NCBI RefSeq assembly: GCF_001447785.1
Contig: NW_015166462.1
Coordinates: forward strand, 380,116 to 444,115
Reading direction: 5' to 3'
Length of the DNA: 64,000 nucleotides
Origin: Gekko japonicus
Lineage: Eukaryota
In this document: piece by piece, positions 8,106 to 62,104 of the stretch
Numbering within the stretch: position 1 is the first letter of the stretch
Layout: each line of letters begins with the position of its first letter
Translations under genes and position numbers: made by a program
Notes under the pieces: model-generated
Told to the model about the DNA's origin: nothing
Seen by the model: the letters and a program-made list of their open reading frames with translations, nothing else
The model's database searches: none

Positions 8106-9857
8106 AAAAATCCTTTGATTTAAATTCTCTTAATAAAGTTTTTTTAAACATTTTCTTTTTTATATATTTTTTTTTTAAACACAGAGGGAGGAAAAAGACT
8201 GGGCAAGAAAGTACAGGCACAGTGGAAACAGTTCCATTAATTACAATGAATAAAAAGAAGGCCTCCCCGCCCCAAGGAACAGGCAACATACAATCCAAAT
8301 CCTTGCACACACATACACAACAGCAGCTTAAAGCCACAGAAGTATAAGAAAACACACACACCCTGTCTTGGAGGGCAGAGAGGGCAAAGTGAGTGTAAAT
8401 GACACAAAAGTGCCAGCGAAACAGAGCCCAGTGGGGGGTCTGCATTGGGAGAACCGCTAGGGAAGGGCACGGAAGCCCATGGATGCTTCTCAGGATAACC
8501 ATGAATTAAAGAGGTACACTGGAACCAAGGGAACATCTTTGGGAGACAACAGGAAACTGTTTGGAGGCTGCTGAATGTTACAGTTAAGTCTCTCCATATA
8601 AGGAAGAGCTTGAGAAGGTACCAATAGCATCCACTGAAGGCTATAAGCAAGACAAGGTAACCAAAAAAGGCTAAGGAGGAAAAAAAAATCCATGTATAGA
8701 ATAACACTATCAATTCCCAAAACAAGATGAAATAATCCAAAACCTGTACTCAAATAACAAAAATTAAAAACCATGCATTACAAAATAATAAGCTTTGGTT
8801 ACATATTGCTTTCTTCTACTGTATAAAACCTTTTTAGGAAAATTGCATTTGCGTACAGTTAAACACTCCTATGACCGGGTACATTTACAGATTGCAGAAA
8901 ACACATGTAAACCAAACATGTTTTGGCTGAAACTGTACAGAAATGCACTTCTACTTTAAAAGTTTATACACCAGGGGAAGGTACATATATATGTAACCAA
9001 AGATTGTTGTTTTGTGATGCACAGTCTTTAATATTTGTTAGTTGATTTAAGATTTTGGATTATAATTTTAGTCGTGTGTGCCTATGCTTGCCTGGAAGTC
9101 ATGGCTGACTTCTAGTGACCCCTAGTGGGGCTGGGAGGCAAGGACATTCAGAGAGGTGGCTTGCTGCCTGTCTCTGTGTCCCAGTCCTGGTATTCCTTGG
9201 AAGTCTCTCATCCAAGTACTTGCCAGGGACGACCCTGCTTAGCTTCTGAGATGAGGCTTGCCCTGTCGATGTGCCACCAATGATAGATGTGGGAAGGCAA
9301 TCTAGTAAAAACGTGTGGGCTGGTAATTCTGGTGACATCCAAGGCTGTGGGCCCCATCTCTTCTTCTGTACGTGAACTTACTTCTATTGTCTCAAGAAAC
9401 CTACTCACCTTGCCCTTCTGTGGAGGATGCTTTTATGTTGTTATGCCCCACCGCCGCCTTCTGGCTAGCCACCCTGGCAGTTTTCAGACAGGAGTGAGGT
9501 GAACAGTACGAATCCAGCAGATGTCAGGGAGCCTTTACTGACTGAAGAGCAGGTCGAAGTGTGTGGCCAGGAGATGCTCCCTCAAGTGCTTGACTTCAGA
9601 GGAGAGCATCCTGCTTCCCTGATGGGTGGGGCCAACCCTGCCCTGAAAGAGCGTTTGGCATTTTTATAAAAAAGAAACCTTTTGAAACGAAAAACTTTTT
9701 ATAAGACGACTTTGGAAAAGGGGGTAGGGGAGATGGCTGATGGGAAATGGAGGAGCAGTCCTGGGGAGAACAAGGCAGCGGCTCAACTGATTCTGAAAAC
9801 AGGGATAGAGGGCCGAGGGGGGCTGACAAAGCAGGTTCCTGATACTGAGCTGGGAAA

Positions 9858-10283
<426 letters not shown>

Positions 10284-34180: not shown

Positions 34181-35540
34181 ATAGCACTCCTCTTATATGC
34201 AGATGATACAGTGTATCTCTCGAGGACCCCAGTTGGTCTTCAGAGAGCACTACATACACTCCACAAGTATTGTCAGCAAAATCGGTTAGAAATTAATTAT
34301 GATAAAACAAAAATAATGTCTTTTGCGAAACCACCAAAGACTTACACATGGTATATTAATAAGAATAAGATAGAGCAGGTACATTACTACAAATATTTGG
34401 GGGTAATTGTTCAGGATAACGGTAAGAAAAGTACCCTCATAAAGCATGCTTCTGCCAATGCACAAAAGAGTGCTGGAGCAATTCAAAAATATTATTGGAC
34501 TCGAGGGGGACGCAATGTGGCAGCAGCTATTAAGCTTTTTACCATGAAATCCTTAATGCAAATGTTATCTGCAGCTCCATTTAGTATTAGTTCTAATATT
34601 ATATTGATGGAGAGGGTCCAGTCCAAATTCCTAAGGGCAGTTTTTCGAACTCCATCCAATGCATCAAATGCAGCAATTAGAATAGAGACGGGAATGGTGA
34701 TGGTAGAAGCTAGGATGTGGATAGCAGTTTTCAGATATTGGTTGAAAGTAGCCTACAGTGAGTATGGGATTGCTCATTTGATTTTAAAAGAAGAATTTAC
34801 ATCACCATGGCTCATTATGCTGAAAAAGAAATTAGGTTATTATGTACTATCAGAACAGTATCTATTGTCTATGCACCAGGATCAAGCAAGGTCTGTGGTA
34901 AAACAAGGATTCTAGATGTTGAAAGACAACACAATCTGAATAGATTGAAAAGTGATATAATTGATTTGAACACCCTAAATAGGCCCTTATTGATGCCTTA
35001 TGTTAACAGTTTAGAGAATCCCAATTATAGGAGGGCGTTCACTCTGCTAAGATACGATATGCTGCCTACTGCAGTACTGGAAGGCAAATATAAGACTCCT
35101 TTAGAAGAATGCCTATGCCGATGTGGGGATGGGAGTGTGGAGACATTAATCCATGTAATTTTTGACTGTAAAAATCTATAAACAGATTCGGGAGGCATTT
35201 GTAGTATCAGCAATTTCTAGTTTCCCAGGGAAAGATCAAAAAAGTCTCCTCAAGAAAATGCTCGCTGATAGAAACAGAGATGTCACCTTCAAAATTGCTA
35301 AGTATGGTTGGCTGGCAATTAAGCTGAGGAAAATATGGACAAGTCATGCTAGTTGATATTTTAGAGATGGTTTTATAAGTAATTTAAGTTATATCACTTA
35401 ATATTTTAGGTTATTAGTGGTTTATTTATGTATTTTACAAATATGATATTCCTGTATAGGGAACAGGAATGTTTTAAGTTTGGGGTTTTACTTCTTTTAC
35501 TGTGTAGTGGTCAATGACTGTAATAAATTTACTTACTTAC
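34181..35540 (+). mobile_element. 3' portion of a non-LTR retrotransposon (RTE-X-like), frameshifted
   Basis: RT motifs LLYADD and YKYLG, a C-terminal C-C-H-C knuckle (CLCRCG...LIHVIFDC), two frameshifts, and an AT-rich 3' UTR ending in AATAAA plus a (TTAC)n tail. Confidence 0.85.
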
Positions 35541-35617
35541 TTGCCCAATCAGCATGCCTGCTTTCTCATTGCAGACTTGGCAGTTCATCTCCAGGGAACA
35601 CTTCTAAGGAGATACTT

Positions 35618-36382
35618 ATGGAGCTGCAGAGACATTCCAAGTTTACAGAGGATCCCCGTAGGCCAGCCAAAACCATGGAACGCTCCTCTCCGCAAGACTC
35701 AAGTAACTTGGGGCACATCAAGCTGGAACTGGAGGATGAGGGAGGGGAAGTCCAAATTTCACCTCCTAAACTGTCTCGCCCACCAGTGCCTTCTCCCGCG
35801 GGTGCCCTTCTTCAGGGTTTGAACAGGTTGCCCGGACTAAGCAAACAGGCCCACATTCATGTGGGGACAACCGGCATGGAACAAGGAGAAACCTCTCGCC
35901 TGGAGCGCTGCGTGTTGATTGACAGCCAGGGGCTCCCATCCACGGTACTGGTAGAAGAGGGGGTGGGGTCAGCGGAGGCGACTGCAGGAGGCACAGAGGG
36001 TGGAGGGAGTGGGGGGTCCTCGCATAAGGTGTACTGCTGTCCAGTGTGTTCGCGAACGTTTGAGTACCTGTCTTACCTGCAGCGCCACAGCATCACCCAC
36101 TCGGAAAACAAGCCTCACAGGTGCCGAACGTGTGGTAAGGCCTTCAAGCGCGCATCCCACTTGGAACGCCACAAATACACCCACTCTGGCCGTAAGCCCT
36201 ATGAATGCCCCATCTGCCATCGAAGTTTCCGTGACTCTGGGGAGCTCTTTCACCACCAGTGGCTGCACACGGGCAGCTGGCCCTACAAATGTGAAGCATG
36301 CCACATGCGCTTCGTCGAGCGCAACACTCTTCAGAGGCACGTCCTCCGGAAGCACCGTCTACAGCTCCCCCCGACACCGTAG
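35618..36382 (+). CDS. ZNF581: ZNF581-like C2H2 zinc finger protein, copy A (254 aa, diverged)
   Basis: Acceptor ttgcag|35575. Has the LIDSQGLP motif and 4 C2H2 fingers starting [25 protein letters not shown], as in ZNF581. The ORF-track extension upstream of 35575 is intron/LINE tail. Confidence 0.82.
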   Translation: MELQRHSKFTEDPRRPAKTMERSSPQDSSNLGHIKLELEDEGGEVQISPPKLSRPPVPSPAGALLQGLNRLPGLSKQAHIHVGTTGMEQGETSRLERCVLIDSQGLPSTVLVEEGVGSAEATAGGTEGGGSGGSSHKVYCCPVCSRTFEYLSYLQRHSITHSENKPHRCRTCGKAFKRASHLERHKYTHSGRKPYECPICHRSFRDSGELFHHQWLHTGSWPYKCEACHMRFVERNTLQRHVLRKHRLQLPPTP

Positions 36383-42830: not shown

Positions 42831-44390
42831 GCCTGTTGAAGGAAGGGTCAAGTAGGATTGTGGGTAGGACATACTGATGCCTTGAAAAGGTGTTCCAGCT
42901 CCAATTGCCGAGCCGTTTCCACTGCACTTCTCAACAGCCTCAAGTTCCTCTTACCTGGTTCACCCTAACTCTGACCATGCTAGCCTTTCTTATCAGCTCT
43001 GATAGCTAAATGGGACCCTAATGGTCAGAGGCAGTAGACATGGCGGACCAACTATAGGGGAACACTGTTGCCTTCATACTTTCCTTGTAAGCTTTCCAGA
43101 AGCATATGGCTGACCACTGTTGGAAGTACAGTGATGGACTAGACAAAGGCATGTGACTTGTACAAGACCGCAAACTGAAGAAGCAGAGGAGAGGTCTAAG
43201 CCCCAAATCCCTCCTTTGACCCAACAAACACCCCAGCACCAGCATGCATGGATATCGCTCATCACAATAACAATAACAGACAGGGATTCTTCAAAATTGT
43301 GAATGAAACATTCTTGCCCAAAACTGAAGTATTAATCCCTCAAATAATTGTTTCAATATTCTTAGAAACTTATTAAGAACTTCCTGATCATATTTTAGAA
43401 GCTCATACTCCCGTGTAATCCCCCACTGGGTGGGGATGAAATCTTACCCTCTCAGACTGTCTTGACGTCCTAGCCAAATTTTATTTCAGTTCCTTTGCCT
43501 TCAGTTTGGACTGGACTTAATGTCCAATGAAGTGCATCGTTTTTGGACCAAAACCTGGTTAGCATTTTCCATACAAGATGGTTGTATTCACAGGGAGAAA
43601 AACAGCCAAGTATATTTCAGGAAGTTTAGCAGGAATTTTACTTCTAGAGCGGTCATCAGCTCTTTGCTTCCCACTTTGAGTAATGCCTGTGTACGTTTCC
43701 TAGATTTGTAGTCAATCAAACTGCAAAGGGAAGACGGATGAGATGGAACAGATTATTCTGGCACCAGCTGGAATATTTTGTTGTGGTTTGGAGCTCGAGG
43801 TTTGTGACATTCTCAAGAACAGGAAAGCTACAGTATAATCATGTGTGTGTGTGTCTGGAAACAAGTCCTACCGTATCCCATGGACTTATTTCTAAGTGGT
43901 ATGAGGAGGACTGAGCTAATCAGTGGAGTTGTCATTGGTGGTGCTGCTAGGTAAGGGTATACTTGTTTAATTCGTAGGGTTGTTTTGGGTCTGGTCTGTT
44001 GTTGACCTGGCCATGGAGAAGAAAATAGGCAAGATCTCTTTCCTTCTAACAATTAGTGGTAACTTTTCGTATTGAACTGCAAGGTATTTTTCCTTATGAG
44101 TCACAAAAGAATCTCAAATCTTGAGTGTTCAGTAATATCTGGATACACTTAAATGGAATAATAATAAAATTGTTTAAAATAAAATTATTTATCAAGTACA
44201 GATCTTGAATTTGTTGGCATTGCTGCATTTCTAAGCATAAATCCATGGAAGTCGATGGATTTAGAAGGGTTTAACTCTGCTTAGGATCGACCTTTGATGT
44301 GCATAACTCTTACTTGCCTAATCAGCATGCCTGCTTTCTCATTGCAGACTTGGCAGCTCATCTCCAGGGAACGCTTCTAAGGAGATACTT

Positions 44391-45158
44391 ATGGAGCTGC
44401 AGAGACATTCCAAGTCTACAGAGGATCCCCGTAGACCAGCCGAAACCATGGAACGTTCCTCTCTGCAAGACCCCACAAGTAACTTGGGGCACATCAAGCT
44501 GGAACTGGAGGATGAGGGAGGGGAAGTCCAGATTTCACCTCCTAAACTGTCTCGCCCACCAGTGCCTTCTCCCGCGGGTGCCCTTCTTCAGGGTTTGAAT
44601 GGGTTGCCCGGAGCAGGCAAACAGGCCCACATTCCTGTAGGGACGAGTGGCATGGAACAAGGAGAAACCTCCCGACTGGGGCGCTACTTGTTGATTGACA
44701 GCCAGGGGCTGCCATACACGGTACTGGTAGAAGAGGGGGTGGGGTCAGCGGAGGCAACTGCAGGGGGCACAGAGGGTGGATGGAGCGGGGGGCCCTTGCG
44801 TAAGGTGTACTGCTGTCCAGTGTGTTCCCGAACATTTGAGTACCTTTCTTACCTGCAGCGCCACAGCATCACCCACTCGGAAAGCAAGCCTCACGTATGC
44901 CGAGCTTGCGGCAAAGCCTTCAAGCGCACATCCCACTTGGAGCGCCACAAATACACCCACTCTGGCCGTAAGCCCCACCAATGCCCCATCTGCCAGCGTA
45001 GCTTCCGTGACTCTGGGGAGCTCTCACACCACCAGCGGGTGCACACGGGCGAGCGGCCCTACCAATGCGAAGCATGCCACATGCGCTTTGGCGAGCGCAA
45101 CACTCTTCAGAGGCACATCCGACGGAAGCACCGTCTACAGCTCCTTCCCACACCGTAG
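44391..45158 (+). CDS. ZNF581: ZNF581-like C2H2 zinc finger protein, copy B (255 aa)
   Basis: Acceptor ttgcag|44348. Has the [15 protein letters not shown] motif (human ZNF581 YLLIDTQGVPYTVLV as recalled) and four intact fingers with a canonical TGERP linker. AATAAA at 45492. Confidence 0.88.
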
Positions 45159-56639: not shown

Positions 56640-57320
56640 TAGACTTTTTGACGGCGGACAAAAAAAGAGGGGAAGGCAACAATTTCCCAGTTCCCTTTAA
56701 TTTCCTTTTGGGCTCCATTTAAAGGGGAGGTCAAGGCTAAGGAAGAGGATGGGCAGGGAAGAGGAGGGGGAGGGGAGTTTCCCCCCCTACTGCTGCTGCT
56801 TCCCTGCGAAGGCAGCTGAAAGTTGGGAAGGGACTTTTTCAAAAAAAATCTCCCCGGAACCACACTGGACGAGGCGGGCGGTGCAGGTGAGAGTCCGCCT
56901 GGAGAAAAGGAAGGGAAGGGAGTCGCTTGGCCGGAGAGATCTGGGTGCGATTCTCGGGAAGAGCAGAGGGGCTCGCGTGCAGGTGGTGGGAAACAAAGAG
57001 GCAGAAGTAAATCCCGGGGGGTGTGGGGTGGTGGGAGAAGCGGGGAGAACTCACCGTAGTAGGGTCGTGCTCCGTGGATGCCTTGCGTGCCGATCCCACC
57101 TGCCCGGCAGGGCTTCAGCCCCCGCGCCTGCGGCGTGCCCAGTGCCGGGAAAAAAAAACCGGCTCGGGGACGGCGCCTAAGGGTCTCTGCGAAGCCTGTA
57201 GCCATCCCGGTTGGCTTCTCCAGAAAGGGTTGGGGGGGGCAGGATGCCAGGGGGCTCTTGGAGGGGGCTGGGTGGGTTTTAAAGGACGCCGGGCCTTCCC
57301 GGGGGAAGAGTAGGGTGAAG
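56640..57320 (+). promoter_or_regulatory. CpG-island promoter and non-coding first exon of the ZNF784-like gene
   Basis: CpG-rich, with donor CAG|gtgag at 56886/56887, about 1.45 kb upstream of the coding-exon acceptor. Confidence 0.65.
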
Positions 57321-57321
57321 G

Positions 57322-57538
57322 CAGTGCCGGATTTACGCATAAACTAAATAAGCTACAGCTTAGGGCTTCGCAATCTGCTGGGGCCTCAAATAAAAACACA
57401 ATATAAAAATGATTTCAAATATTAAAAAAGGCGTATATATTTAAAATTTTTCTGAGACCAGCTGATGTAATTTAAAACAGTAGGGGGCCTCTGGGTTTTG
57501 TATAGCTTAGGGCCTCAGCAAGTCTAAATCCGGCCCTG
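57322..57538. mobile_element. hAT MITE (CAG(T/G)GCCGGATTTA termini)
   Basis: TIRs with an exact TSD GGTGAAGG. Confidence 0.85.
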
Positions 57539-58388
57539 GGTGAAGGGATGGGGGACGCCTGGGTTTCCTGATAAGGAAATGAGCACTCTTGGACAGGATG
57601 GGATGATGGAACACCCCTCCACTGGGTTGGGAGACTGGCTCCTCCGCACATGGAGTGGGGCCTAGTAAGTTCGAGGAGGGGTTAGGTCGGGCGGTTGAAT
57701 TGCATTGTGGGGACGGCAGACTCAAGGCCCACCTCGACCTTCTCTTTCCTGCAGCGCCTAGCCAGATACCTCTGGGTGCTCACGAGGAGGGCGTGAAGAA
57801 AATGGCCTTTCCCTCTTTGTCATTTACCCAGTGTGTTGCATTTAGAGGTATACTGCTCCTGTACATGGAGGTTCCATTGTACAAGGAATAAGCAGAGCCT
57901 AACGAAGGGGAGTCGCTTTGGAGCTGAAGTGCCCCAGTCCTTTTGGGAACAAAGTGAGTGTGGGGTGTGTGTGTGTGGGGGGGAAAGTAGTGAGCTTAGA
58001 GCCAGAATTCCCCAAGGACCTTGAGTAGACAGAAGAACAAATGGATTTCTAAAAGAGAAATTGGAGACTGGGTGATTGCAGGACTGGGGTCTAGCACACC
58101 CAAGGCTTCTAGAGAGAAGCTGGTTATGACAGAGAAGCTGGAAATTGAATTTTCCCAGAAGGAGGTATATGCATGGGGGGTGGGGTGGGTGTATGTGGCA
58201 TCAAATTTGTGTCAGAATCGTGCACCAAAGTGATGTTTTAAGCCAAGGCTGCATTTTATTCCATTTTACCTTTCCTCCCCTCCTTTCCTAGTATTCCCAT
58301 GATCTCCTTTCTCATTTTCTGTTTTTTTCTTTTCTTTTCCTAAGGGCAGATGCTGAGAAGCTGGCACTGTGATGCTTTGGACTAACTG

Positions 58389-60413
58389 ATGGAAACAGAG
58401 CTGATTACAGTAAAGGAAGAAACTGGATCAGTAACTCTCCCGACCTGCTGCCTGTGCCAGGAGGAGCTACCAGACCTTGCTGGATCCCCAGGGCAGATTC
58501 CACAATGCCAGGCCTGCAAAAGCATTGTCTTGGAGCCCAGGAACTGGTTGCCTGACAGCCAAGAGGCCCAGGCCTTCCCTGCTGACAGACCTTTCGGTTG
58601 CTCTTTCTGCCCCAAGCGCTTCAAGAGGGCCTCAGACCGGCGCGACCATGAGCGGGTGCATACGGGAGAAAGGCCCTACGGCTGCGGTATCTGTGGCAAG
58701 CGCTTTACTCAGAGCTCAGTGCTTTCTGGCCACATGCGCATCCATACTGGTGAGCGGCCTTTTCACTGTGCTGTCTGCTTAAAGTCTTTCAACAACGGCT
58801 CCAATTTTCGCAAGCACCAACGTATCCATGATCAACCGTGTGAATATGGTGCCAAGGGGAAGGGTGGGAAGGACTGTCCCATCCTTCCTGGGAAGAAGCA
58901 GCGTCAAGCCACGGATAGGCAAGATGGCAGAAACCAGTGGCAGGGCAAGATACTGAGGCAAAATGGCCACCAAAGCATCAAGGAACTGAGGGAAGGTGGC
59001 AACAGGGGCCATGACATTGTTGAGAGACAAAATGGCCCTCATGTGAATGGGCTTCTAGGCCAAGATGGTGGCAACCATGGTCTAAGGCAACTTGGTAATA
59101 AGGTAGGCCATTTCAAGAGAACGAAAGTTAGGCAAGGTGCCACTTACTGTGGCCCTGACCTTGAAATGAGACCTAGAAGTGGCCAAGTTAAGACAGGTGA
59201 TGGCAAAGGACATGTTGGTGAACAGGGGGGAAATGGAAATTGCAGCCTTGAACAAGGGGAAACTCAAAATGGCCACAGCTTCAGACTTCTGAAGTACGGT
59301 AGTGAGGAAAACCACATTAAAAGTCTGAAGTCAAGGAAAGCAGAGGAAAGCCACACTCAGGGAGACCAGAAACATGTGGCCAGCCATAGTGGTAGGTTAC
59401 AGTTAGATGCCGTCAGCTGTGGGAAAGGCCTCTTATCAGTGGGTGGCAACAGGGACCATATTCATAGACTGAGCCAAAATGGCAGTGTCAGGGGCTATGA
59501 CTTAGACAGGAGGCCTAACGGAGGCTACCTCAGAGGGCTGAAGCACACCAGTGGAAAGGACTCTGTTGCAGACACGAAACAGAATGACCCTGGGGGAAGT
59601 CCTAACAGTGGGCTAAGGCAAATCCGCCATGACACCACGACAAAGCTGAGACAAAATGTCAGCCAGAGCATGACTGAAAATGGCACCGGCCATTTTAGAG
59701 AGCTGAGACAGGATGGTGGCATCAGCAAGAAGCAGCAGGTGAACTTTCAAGCGTGCACTCCTGGAAACATGAACTCTCTAGTGCCTAAAATGTTTGTCCG
59801 AACTGGTCCTGAAAGGGGGGATATCATGGTCTGGGAAGACCCCGATATGGAGATAGTGAAGGGGAGAGATGAACTTGATGAATGCTGTCCCTTTGACAGG
59901 CATCCCTGTTCACCCTCCTGGGAGCCAGGCATCTCCGATGCATGCCCTCCGCCTTATGACCTCTCAGTGTCCCCCCAGCACCACTCCCTGCAAGACCAAG
60001 TCAGCAGCACCGTTCAGCCCTGGGAAGGAGAGAGCCCCACCTGCTTTCCTTTCCAAGATCCTGAGCCTTATGCTCAGCATTCCCAGTCAGCCGTCGATTC
60101 CAAGCCTTTCCTGTGCTTTGCGTGTCCCAAGCAGTTCCGGCGTGCTACGGATCTGAAGGAGCATCTGCGAGTCCATACAGGCGAAAGGCCCTTTGGCTGC
60201 TCCGTCTGCGGTAAGCGGTTCACACAGAGCTCAGCCCTGGCGACTCACCGCAGGCTTCATACTGGGGAAAAGCCCTTTGAATGCACCGTGTGCTGTCGGC
60301 GCTTTAATAACTCTTCCAACTTTGCCAAACATCGCCGGCTTCATATGCAGGAGAGCACAGGATGTGCCGGTAAGGTTGCGGAGAAAATATCACGGAGTGG
60401 CAAGCCACAGTGA
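58389..60413 (+). CDS. ZNF784: ZNF784-related C2H2 zinc finger protein, 674 aa, 3+3 fingers
   Basis: Single coding exon after a long pyrimidine tract and acceptor (58344); an in-frame TAA precedes the ATG. Fingers with SD-RDHERVH / [10 protein letters not shown] / FNN-SNFRKH match the C-terminal triplet of ZNF784, and the position is syntenic. Ortholog versus paralog status is uncertain. Confidence 0.72.
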
Positions 60414-62104
60414 CCACTTCAGGGGATCTTATCCTGTTAGACGGTATGTGGTGAAAAGTGCAGTCGAAGCTGAGTTATGGCAGCCCTGCAGATTTTCAAG
60501 ATAAGAGACCAGCAGAGGTGGGTTGCCACCGTATCACAGTCCTGGTCTTCCTCGGTGGTCTCCCAATCCAGTTATTAACCAGAGCCGACCCTGCTTAGCT
60601 ACTGAGATCTCATGAAGCTGGGCCATCCAGATGGTATATGGTCGCTGAAATAAGAGCCGTGATAATTCTAACACTGCAATACTGAATTCAGCATTCATTC
60701 AGAACCTCATTTCCTCATTTCAAAGTTCCTAGTACTCAAGGCTAAGGAGAGGCCTGAAATAAGTGGACAAAGCCTACTGAAGGTGGGGCTGAAGAGAAGC
60801 TGAGCAAAACTTGTAGTGATCAGTGCCTTGTGTAGTTGTGTGTCCTCTCCCAGGAATAGCAGAAGAAAAAATACAAAATAAACAAGGATCTGAAAATTTG
60901 GGTAGTTTGTGTAACTTTCTACAGTTGATATATTTTTTTCCCCTCTAGCAAAGTCCCACCCACAGGTTTTTAAGCATGCTCATCATGAAGAGGGCAAATT
61001 TAAAATGATTTTTGGCTCTAAAAATGTATTTGCCGAAATTGTTAGTAGATTGGGGAGGGAGGACTTAAATATATTTTCATGTTATGCCTGCAATGGTGCA
61101 ACATGTGGGAAGGAATTAGAGGGGGGGGAAGGTCTTCCCAAAGTTTAACTATTGTCAGCCAATACCCAAAGCCAGAAATAAATTTTCTGAAAAGTTGTCA
61201 TGTTCAAAAAACAAATAGTGGTAATTCTAATTTCTAAATCTACAGCATTTTTTTAAATCGTGTTTTATACCATGAAGAATATTCTGGTAATTGTGATGGG
61301 GGGGGGGAGAGTAGCAGAATAATTGCATGATCCCCCCCCCCCAAGAAAAAAAAAATCCCAGAAGAAAATTTGAGACTACGTACTCCATGAAACTTCTGCT
61401 AAAAATTCCATTCAAATTTACTTCCATCTAATTTTTATCTGTCTTTGCAGAAGTTATTTGTTTTCTGTCTTAAAGGAAACCTTATAAACTTTGGGCATCC
61501 CTCCTTTTAAAAAAAAATTGTTCTCTGTTCTTCATTTCTCTGTACATTTTGCAGTATAAGCCCTTTTACACCCTTTTGGTCTTCTCCAAGGATGGATGTT
61601 CATGGCTGCTTTCCATATGCAGCACAAATTGGTTGGTTCCATACAGAACACACGCATCTTTCTAAACAACACGCCTGCTTTCAAACCCACTTTTCAGAAT
61701 AAATTTCAGAGTGTATCGAGCTGTCCTCTGAACTTGTATTTCTTTCATGATAAAGACTCAACATGCATTAATCCTAGAAAAAAAGGCAACTTGTCCAGAG
61801 TGTAGTAGTACAGGAGCCTCTATGAGGGTTAAAAAGATAGAATGAGCAAGAAGCAGAAGGCAACTCTTGCTGTTATCTTCTCATATAAAACTTTCCAGCT
61901 AGCATTCATGCTCCCCAGGTTCCACCCACCTATGAGAAGGGCTTTGAGCAAACAACTGAGACCCCAGTGCAAGGTTCTGCTGAATAAGGGGGCCATGCTG
62001 CTATTCCAACTGACTGTTCTGCTATCCTGCTGGGGGGGTTGAACTGAAATAAACGGGGGAGGGAAGAGATGATTTCTCGAGCAAGTTCTGCTTACTCAGG
62101 ATCA

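Follow-up and report, generated by a model that had tools for sequence, protein, structure and literature searches.

The gecko orthologue of ZNF784 carries two related zinc-finger triplets whose duplication very probably predates the coelacanth-tetrapod split

The closest described relative of the gene analyzed here is ZNF784 (Zfp784; human 19q13.42). In human, mouse and dog it encodes six zinc fingers, the first three with the fingerprints (positions -1, 2, 3 and 6) LSEF GASA AAPR and the last three with RSDD QSVG NSNK. It has no KRAB, SCAN or BTB domain, and its neighbours are ZNF865 and ZNF524. A SELEX motif exists for the human protein (PMC8408965), and the same protein is reported second-hand to bind and stabilise some m6A mRNAs. 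The supplement of PMC3971581 (2014) classes ZNF784 as 'Eutherians', and the main text of that paper does not mention the gene. The same supplement aligns a frog and a lizard gene as a 'Tetrapods' pair displaying two triplets, called B and C below, merged with neighbouring fingers. A literature search, outside of which lay subscription journals, bioRxiv supplements and further PMC5131825 files, found among the papers listed no description of the evolution of ZNF784 or of reciprocal loss in it, and a paper on ZNF524 contains no mention of ZNF784.

Two other systems resemble the gecko protein in architecture. ZEB1 and ZEB2 (deltaEF1 and SIP1), as described in PMC8304685, have two separated finger clusters of like specificity and a long linker, and recognise pairs of half-sites that lie apart and may vary in spacing and orientation; two-cluster binding by ZEB proteins is also described in PMC6745990. 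ZNF628 (mammalian proteins P0255 and P0257) is a non-KRAB protein whose finger block is internally repeated (GSxY RSLI WSHY NSxR QxNQ HSNL, twice), but its fingerprints are different, its blocks have six fingers and it is not orthologous. Repeated arrays may be a habit of an old non-KRAB zinc-finger group that includes ZNF628. Already known are two-handed zinc-finger factors as such, the gecko gene as an annotated locus and relatives that carry the name ZNF784.

The locus lies in a 64,000-nt stretch of the Gekko japonicus genome (GCF_001447785.1, contig NW_015166462.1, positions 380,116 to 444,115 of the forward strand), referred to as the window, whose numbering is used throughout. An open reading frame of 674 aa on the + strand (58389..60413) forms a single coding exon and contains two arrays of three C2H2 fingers each. 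Array B (58599..58829, +; finger starts at 58599, 58683 and 58767) has the fingerprint RSDD QSVG NSNK, the same as fingers 4-6 of human ZNF784. Array C (60114..60344, +; finger starts at 60114, 60198 and 60282) has RTDE QSAT NSNK and corresponds to the array C seen in frog, lungfish and coelacanth. The offset between the arrays is 505 aa (1515 nt) from start to start, and a spacer of 428 aa separates the end of finger 3 (aa 147) from the start of finger 4 (aa 576). All six helices are exactly those given in the original prediction, which had put the spacer at about 420 aa.

Arrays B and C were compared in register: they agree at 52 of 80 residues (65%), and the matches include 8 of the 12 fingerprint positions as well as 12 of the 21 residues in the helices. 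Control triplets had a mean identity of 47% and a maximum of 60-61%, and none of the 1608 contiguous triplets from 155 unrelated zinc-finger proteins, which as overlapping windows are non-independent, reached 8/12 fingerprint matches (maximum 7) or 12/21 helix matches (maximum 9 against B and 11 against C). The best partners within the protein were B1-C1 (12/21), B2-C2 (14/21) and B3-C3 (13/21), with finger C3 tied to C2 at 13. All three finger pairs agree at position -1, the third pair agrees throughout (NSNK), and the contact residues differ at 4 of 12 positions, as S/T, D/E, V/A and G/T. The internal duplication is real, and the triplets are homologous finger for finger, as had been proposed. 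Pfam returned only zinc-finger families as significant for the gecko protein, with no KRAB, SCAN or BTB domain and no homeodomain at E up to 1.

Both arrays are encoded on one exon and in one transcript, since single contigs and the reads of run X21 span the reading frame. In a 3138-nt contig of run X1, a run counted as RNA by guess, 56735-56886 is joined to 58345-61329 across a GT...AG intron (56887..58344, +) whose ends were taken from the sequence. The upstream segment (56735..56886, +) is a 152-nt exon of 5' UTR, the sole upstream exon seen for this gene; its 5' end is the end of the contig, with no mapped start site, and the region also carries pieces of runs X9 and X11. The second exon (58345..61329, +) holds the entire coding sequence and the 3' UTR, and a 3157-nt X9 contig covering 58346-61496 extends it to 61496. 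Raw RNA reads of X21 were present across every bin of the reading frame. No splice joints inside it were listed in four runs, in which the joint between exons 1 and 2 is also unlisted because a repeat next to the acceptor interrupts the reads. Within the intron, depth was zero at 57662-58192 in four runs, and reads at 57308-57661 sit on a repeat. An in-frame upstream ORF of 11 codons (58350..58385, +) stops 3 nt ahead of the main ATG. Squamate models P0012, P0013 and P0025 have N-terminal extensions at this upstream-ORF region.

The exact gecko protein is already present in NCBI and UniRef, and the nearest named relative among the matches listed is that of Gekko kuhli (89%). An artefact of assembly or annotation was ruled out, as both arrays lie within single transcript contigs and the arrangement recurs in 28 other squamates. 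Two corn snake RefSeq isoforms depart from this form: X3 (P0065) stops before array C, and X2 (P0028) is without 79 aa of the linker. No joints like theirs were seen in the gecko runs examined.

The gecko gene is the squamate orthologue of ZNF784. This assignment is based on fingerprint, gene order and source names, and it makes more precise the original description of the protein as ZNF784-related. In the PMC3971581 supplement, fingers 4-6 of human, mouse and dog ZNF784 have the fingerprint of array B. At least 28 squamate relatives with B and C were found among the best 120 of 7964 candidates scored, and 8 of the 28 are named zinc finger protein 784, as is a caecilian (Geotrypetes) protein with three triplets. 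An Atlas structure search returned a 'zinc finger protein 784' cluster as its top row; a feature search with residues 1-155 returned generic zinc-finger clusters, and a PDB search with array B listed no ZNF784 among 60 rows.

Gene order supports the same assignment. Past the right end of the window are a 20-finger ZNF865-like gene (69800-72763, contig 449915-452878, locus L011, - strand) and a four-finger ZNF524-like gene (94582-95718, contig 474697-475833, locus L014, - strand), so that ZNF784 (+) stands tail-to-tail with ZNF865-like (-), followed by ZNF524-like (-). By eye, the fingerprints of 18 of 20 fingers in the former and 3 of 4 in the latter match the human genes. Human chromosome 19 has the same order and orientation, ZNF784-ZNF865-ZNF524, and a Xenopus scaffold likewise for ZNF865 (PMC3971581 supplement). 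These two genes occupy the region just right of the window where a check for a conventional ZNF784 had been suggested; none was found within 80 kb to the left or 58 kb to the right, and a second, conventional copy beside the gecko gene was ruled out over that range. In a search of the gecko's own genome, arrays B and C were the best two of 23 matches and the next eight loci were without the fingerprint. No closer ZNF784 paralogue was present among the matches scored (150 of 8991 candidates), which gives a lower bound on paralogues. With the axolotl protein as query, even the known ZNF784 locus was not returned.

Outside amniotes, the orthologues have more fingers. In coelacanth, lungfish, salamanders, caecilians and frogs the layout is a finger F0, triplet A, triplet B, a linker, triplet C and a terminal finger. 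These proteins share B, C, the long linker and an EIQxVKxKEE-type N-terminus with the gecko protein, and Xenopus also shares the gene order; they differ in having kept F0, A and the terminal finger, with one or two more in coelacanth and lungfish. Their names vary, from ZNF784 (Geotrypetes) to 'ZNF271-like', 'ZNF2', 'ZNF436' and others. A census of 264 proteins and the window, with patterns that preset part of the B and C fingerprints, gave 37 proteins with A+B+C, 29 with B+C (the gecko and the 28 squamates, whose rows had been listed unfiltered beforehand), one with B only and one with A+B and a truncated C. The refuting outcome named with the original prediction, an architecture broadly present in vertebrates, is largely what these squamate and non-amniote orthologues amount to.

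The original prediction held that the duplication was specific to one lineage. B and C are plainly duplicates, but frogs, salamanders, caecilians, lungfish and coelacanth have a C of identical fingerprint at the corresponding place. Gecko B is on average 76% identical to non-amniote B and 66% to non-amniote C, and gecko C is 75% identical to non-amniote C and 61% to non-amniote B. The closest partner was the corresponding array in 37 of 37 proteins, each time with an identity higher than the 65% that gecko B and C share. Seven diagnostic columns sort by array and none by lineage, and with no lineage-grouping columns there was no sign of gene conversion between squamate B and C. At four-fold sites the two gecko arrays agree at only 7 of 20, which is near saturation.

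With outgroups (52 triplets from 21 species plus 20 long-branch outgroup triplets), C (96/88) and A (100/100) each formed one group while the B triplets stayed unresolved, and a squamate B+C clade survived the AU test (p=0.085). In a tree without outgroups, run second along with its AU test and on 80 columns only, B formed one group (99/99) and the squamate clade was rejected (p=0.0004). A recent or gecko-specific duplication is effectively refuted by the non-amniote orthologues, and we give it next to no probability. Since gecko C groups with non-amniote C and not with gecko B, the triplet repeat appears to be older than the split between coelacanth and tetrapods. This split is dated to about 410 million years ago. 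Taken jointly, the identity of the gene as ZNF784 and this age for the repeat can be stated with high confidence.

Orthologues from turtles, crocodilians, birds, tuatara, marsupials, monotremes, sharks and ray-finned fish were not found among the best 120 matches of three protein searches, and neither was mammalian ZNF784; those lists are crowded by many-finger proteins, and in two of them the length limit lies above the size of mammalian ZNF784, so that the negative result does not speak for absence. A representative search with residues 1-70 gave five matches, three from squamates and two from unrelated repeats.

The orthologues that were found differ in which triplets they have kept. Squamate proteins are without F0, triplet A and the terminal finger. 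No finger precedes array B in gecko, and the mammalian layout, in which LSEF GASA AAPR and B are followed by nothing, does not apply to it. A tblastn search over 202 kb gave only B, C and neighbouring zinc-finger genes, with no stray copy of F0+A. Human, mouse and dog ZNF784, in contrast to the lizard protein, has N-terminal fingers and no array C or long linker. Human finger 1 (LSEF) resembles F0 (YSEF). In a PMC5131825 supplement row, a partial coding sequence translated and compared by eye, human finger 2 has the A1-like ending HYSLHTGERPY, and a stretch reading EIQVVKV agrees with the N-terminus of lungfish; the rest of this comparison uses fingerprints. The PMC3971581 alignment, which uses old assemblies and excludes singletons, has the C1 fingerprint RTDE in three places: in frog, in lizard and in one unrelated mouse gene.

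This distribution suggests that squamates lost F0 and triplet A, and that the lineage of human, mouse and dog lost C while its A region drifted. From the resemblance of these sequences, the N-terminal fingers of human ZNF784 probably represent, in decayed form, the F0+A block of the same ancestral protein. They are indeed absent from the gecko protein, as had been noted, but are probably not the different set that they had been taken for. Human ZNF784 would then probably be what truncation has left of an ancient factor with several arrays. An ancient triple array with probable reciprocal losses is new, as a modest insight, and it corrects the eutherian-only assignment of ZNF784 in the PMC3971581 supplement, where the frog and lizard genes stand unlinked to it in the same file.

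The N-terminus of the gecko protein may preserve traces of the lost fingers. In an hhalign comparison with the non-amniote N-terminus, two cysteine pairs (CxxC-x16-CxxC, C20-C43; 58446..58517, +) align with the pairs of F0 and A1 (probability 70%, E 4e-5), and a CxxC-x(about 13-16)-CxxC motif was found in 28 of 30 B+C proteins. By a 10-residue score, F0 and A1 were not singled out as the source of the pairs; all means were negative, and the F0 set was contaminated by B1 fingers. AlphaFold pLDDT over the motif is about 50-60. An Atlas search with residues 1-66 gave nothing above threshold; several of the rows below it are C4 zinc folds, which serves as a lead only. From this alignment the motif is probably a remnant of the cysteine pairs of ancestral F0 and A1, and it is possibly a C4 zinc site. 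The VKEE within a conserved EIQxVxVKEE stretch (58410..58421, +), identified by regular expression and alignment, is presumably a SUMO-type consensus, and K9 is a candidate SUMO site. The psi-K-x-E expression matches at K9 in 29 of 30 B+C proteins and in 19 of 40 A+B+C proteins.

The linker between the arrays (58830..60113, +) is predicted to be disordered, with a pLDDT of about 30. Its first 310 aa are basic and rich in Gly, Gln and Asn, and its last 118 are acidic and Pro-rich. Across 12 squamates, array B is 91-97% and array C 95-100% identical, as compared to 30-76% for the linker, and the gecko and non-amniote linkers are unalignable (7-8% identity). Linker length is 407-438 aa in 27 of 29 B+C proteins and 260-338 aa in the 37 A+B+C proteins. 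The acidic end contains PYDLS (59955-59969), which we take to be a CtBP-type PxDLS motif and which is present in only 6 of 30 B+C proteins. The gecko protein also differs from ZEB1 and ZEB2 in its recognition helices, and no homeodomain or Smad-binding domain was found in it; ZEB proteins are best regarded as a model of how it might work, not as family members.

Given the near-identical base-contacting residues of B and C, related motifs are a fair prediction for the two arrays. Array B would read the human ZNF784 motif and array C a near-identical one, as the contact positions differ only by the four substitutions listed above. The two arrays could together hold a pair of related sites, each about 9 bp long, whose spacing and orientation need not be strict, and having both hands would make binding to paired sites more avid and more selective; SUMOylation of the N-terminal psi-K-x-E may occur and lead to cofactor recruitment. 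We lean slightly towards two-handed, ZEB-like binding of paired related sites. For the locus as a whole, a lizard ZNF784 orthologue working as a two-handed DNA-binding protein is probably the best explanation.

In the main alternative, the arrays would act separately, each on its own single sites, or with B on DNA and C on an RNA or protein partner, the linker serving as tether and effector. Human, mouse and dog ZNF784 and corn snake isoform X3 are all without array C; mammalian ZNF784 works without it, and C is for these reasons dispensable in some contexts. One intact triplet is enough for the human protein to have a second, non-canonical SELEX motif (PMC8408965), its reported binding of m6A mRNAs would allow the arrays to act on RNA, and the seven diagnostic columns, fixed throughout the history of B and C, suggest distinct jobs. 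However, all finger pairs share position -1 and finger 3 is identical, and a near-identical specificity held for so long would be easier to understand as joint use on similar sites. Separate action is considered somewhat unlikely, and joint, two-handed binding remains the preferred reading.

The original prediction also raised bridging of distant DNA, with B and C forming loops or trans contacts as an architectural factor. A long, flexible linker that joins two related arrays and keeps within the narrow length ranges given above would suit such a role. However, nothing beyond the anatomy supports it; Pfam gives no dimerisation domain, and nearby paired sites would be expected to outcompete distant ones. 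A lone three-finger array is a weak, short-lived DNA anchor. Bridging is very unlikely by our estimate. A broader proposal, in which a three-handed factor dating back more than 400 million years survives in human as the one-handed ZNF784, squamate B and C tether two DNA sites and the cysteines of dead fingers were recycled as a new C4 zinc module, is speculative and, as a whole, improbable. Amphibian A+B+C, squamate B+C and mammalian B nevertheless form a ready series for the effect of a second array. If one gene indeed exists with valencies of three, two and one, it would be a natural experiment on how array number relates to target choice and looping.

The left part of the window contains further features. 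Two four-finger genes on the + strand (35447-36379 and 44322-45155), 86% identical over 1864 nt, are presumably ZNF581-like and appear from their sequences to have arisen by tandem duplication not long ago, with changes close to fingers 3-4. As in frog, they share the strand of ZNF784, and their fingerprint, YSYR RSHR DGEx ENTR, is also seen ahead of the frog and lizard models in the PMC3971581 alignment. An exon on the - strand at about 9850-10200 fits the human 19q13.42 neighbourhood. We take it to resemble the C-terminus of CCDC106. Elsewhere, locus L003 (C9047:82117-85362) is an open reading frame of 35 fingers in which seven consecutive fingerprints are identical (DSTK), a run that suggests a recent finger expansion.
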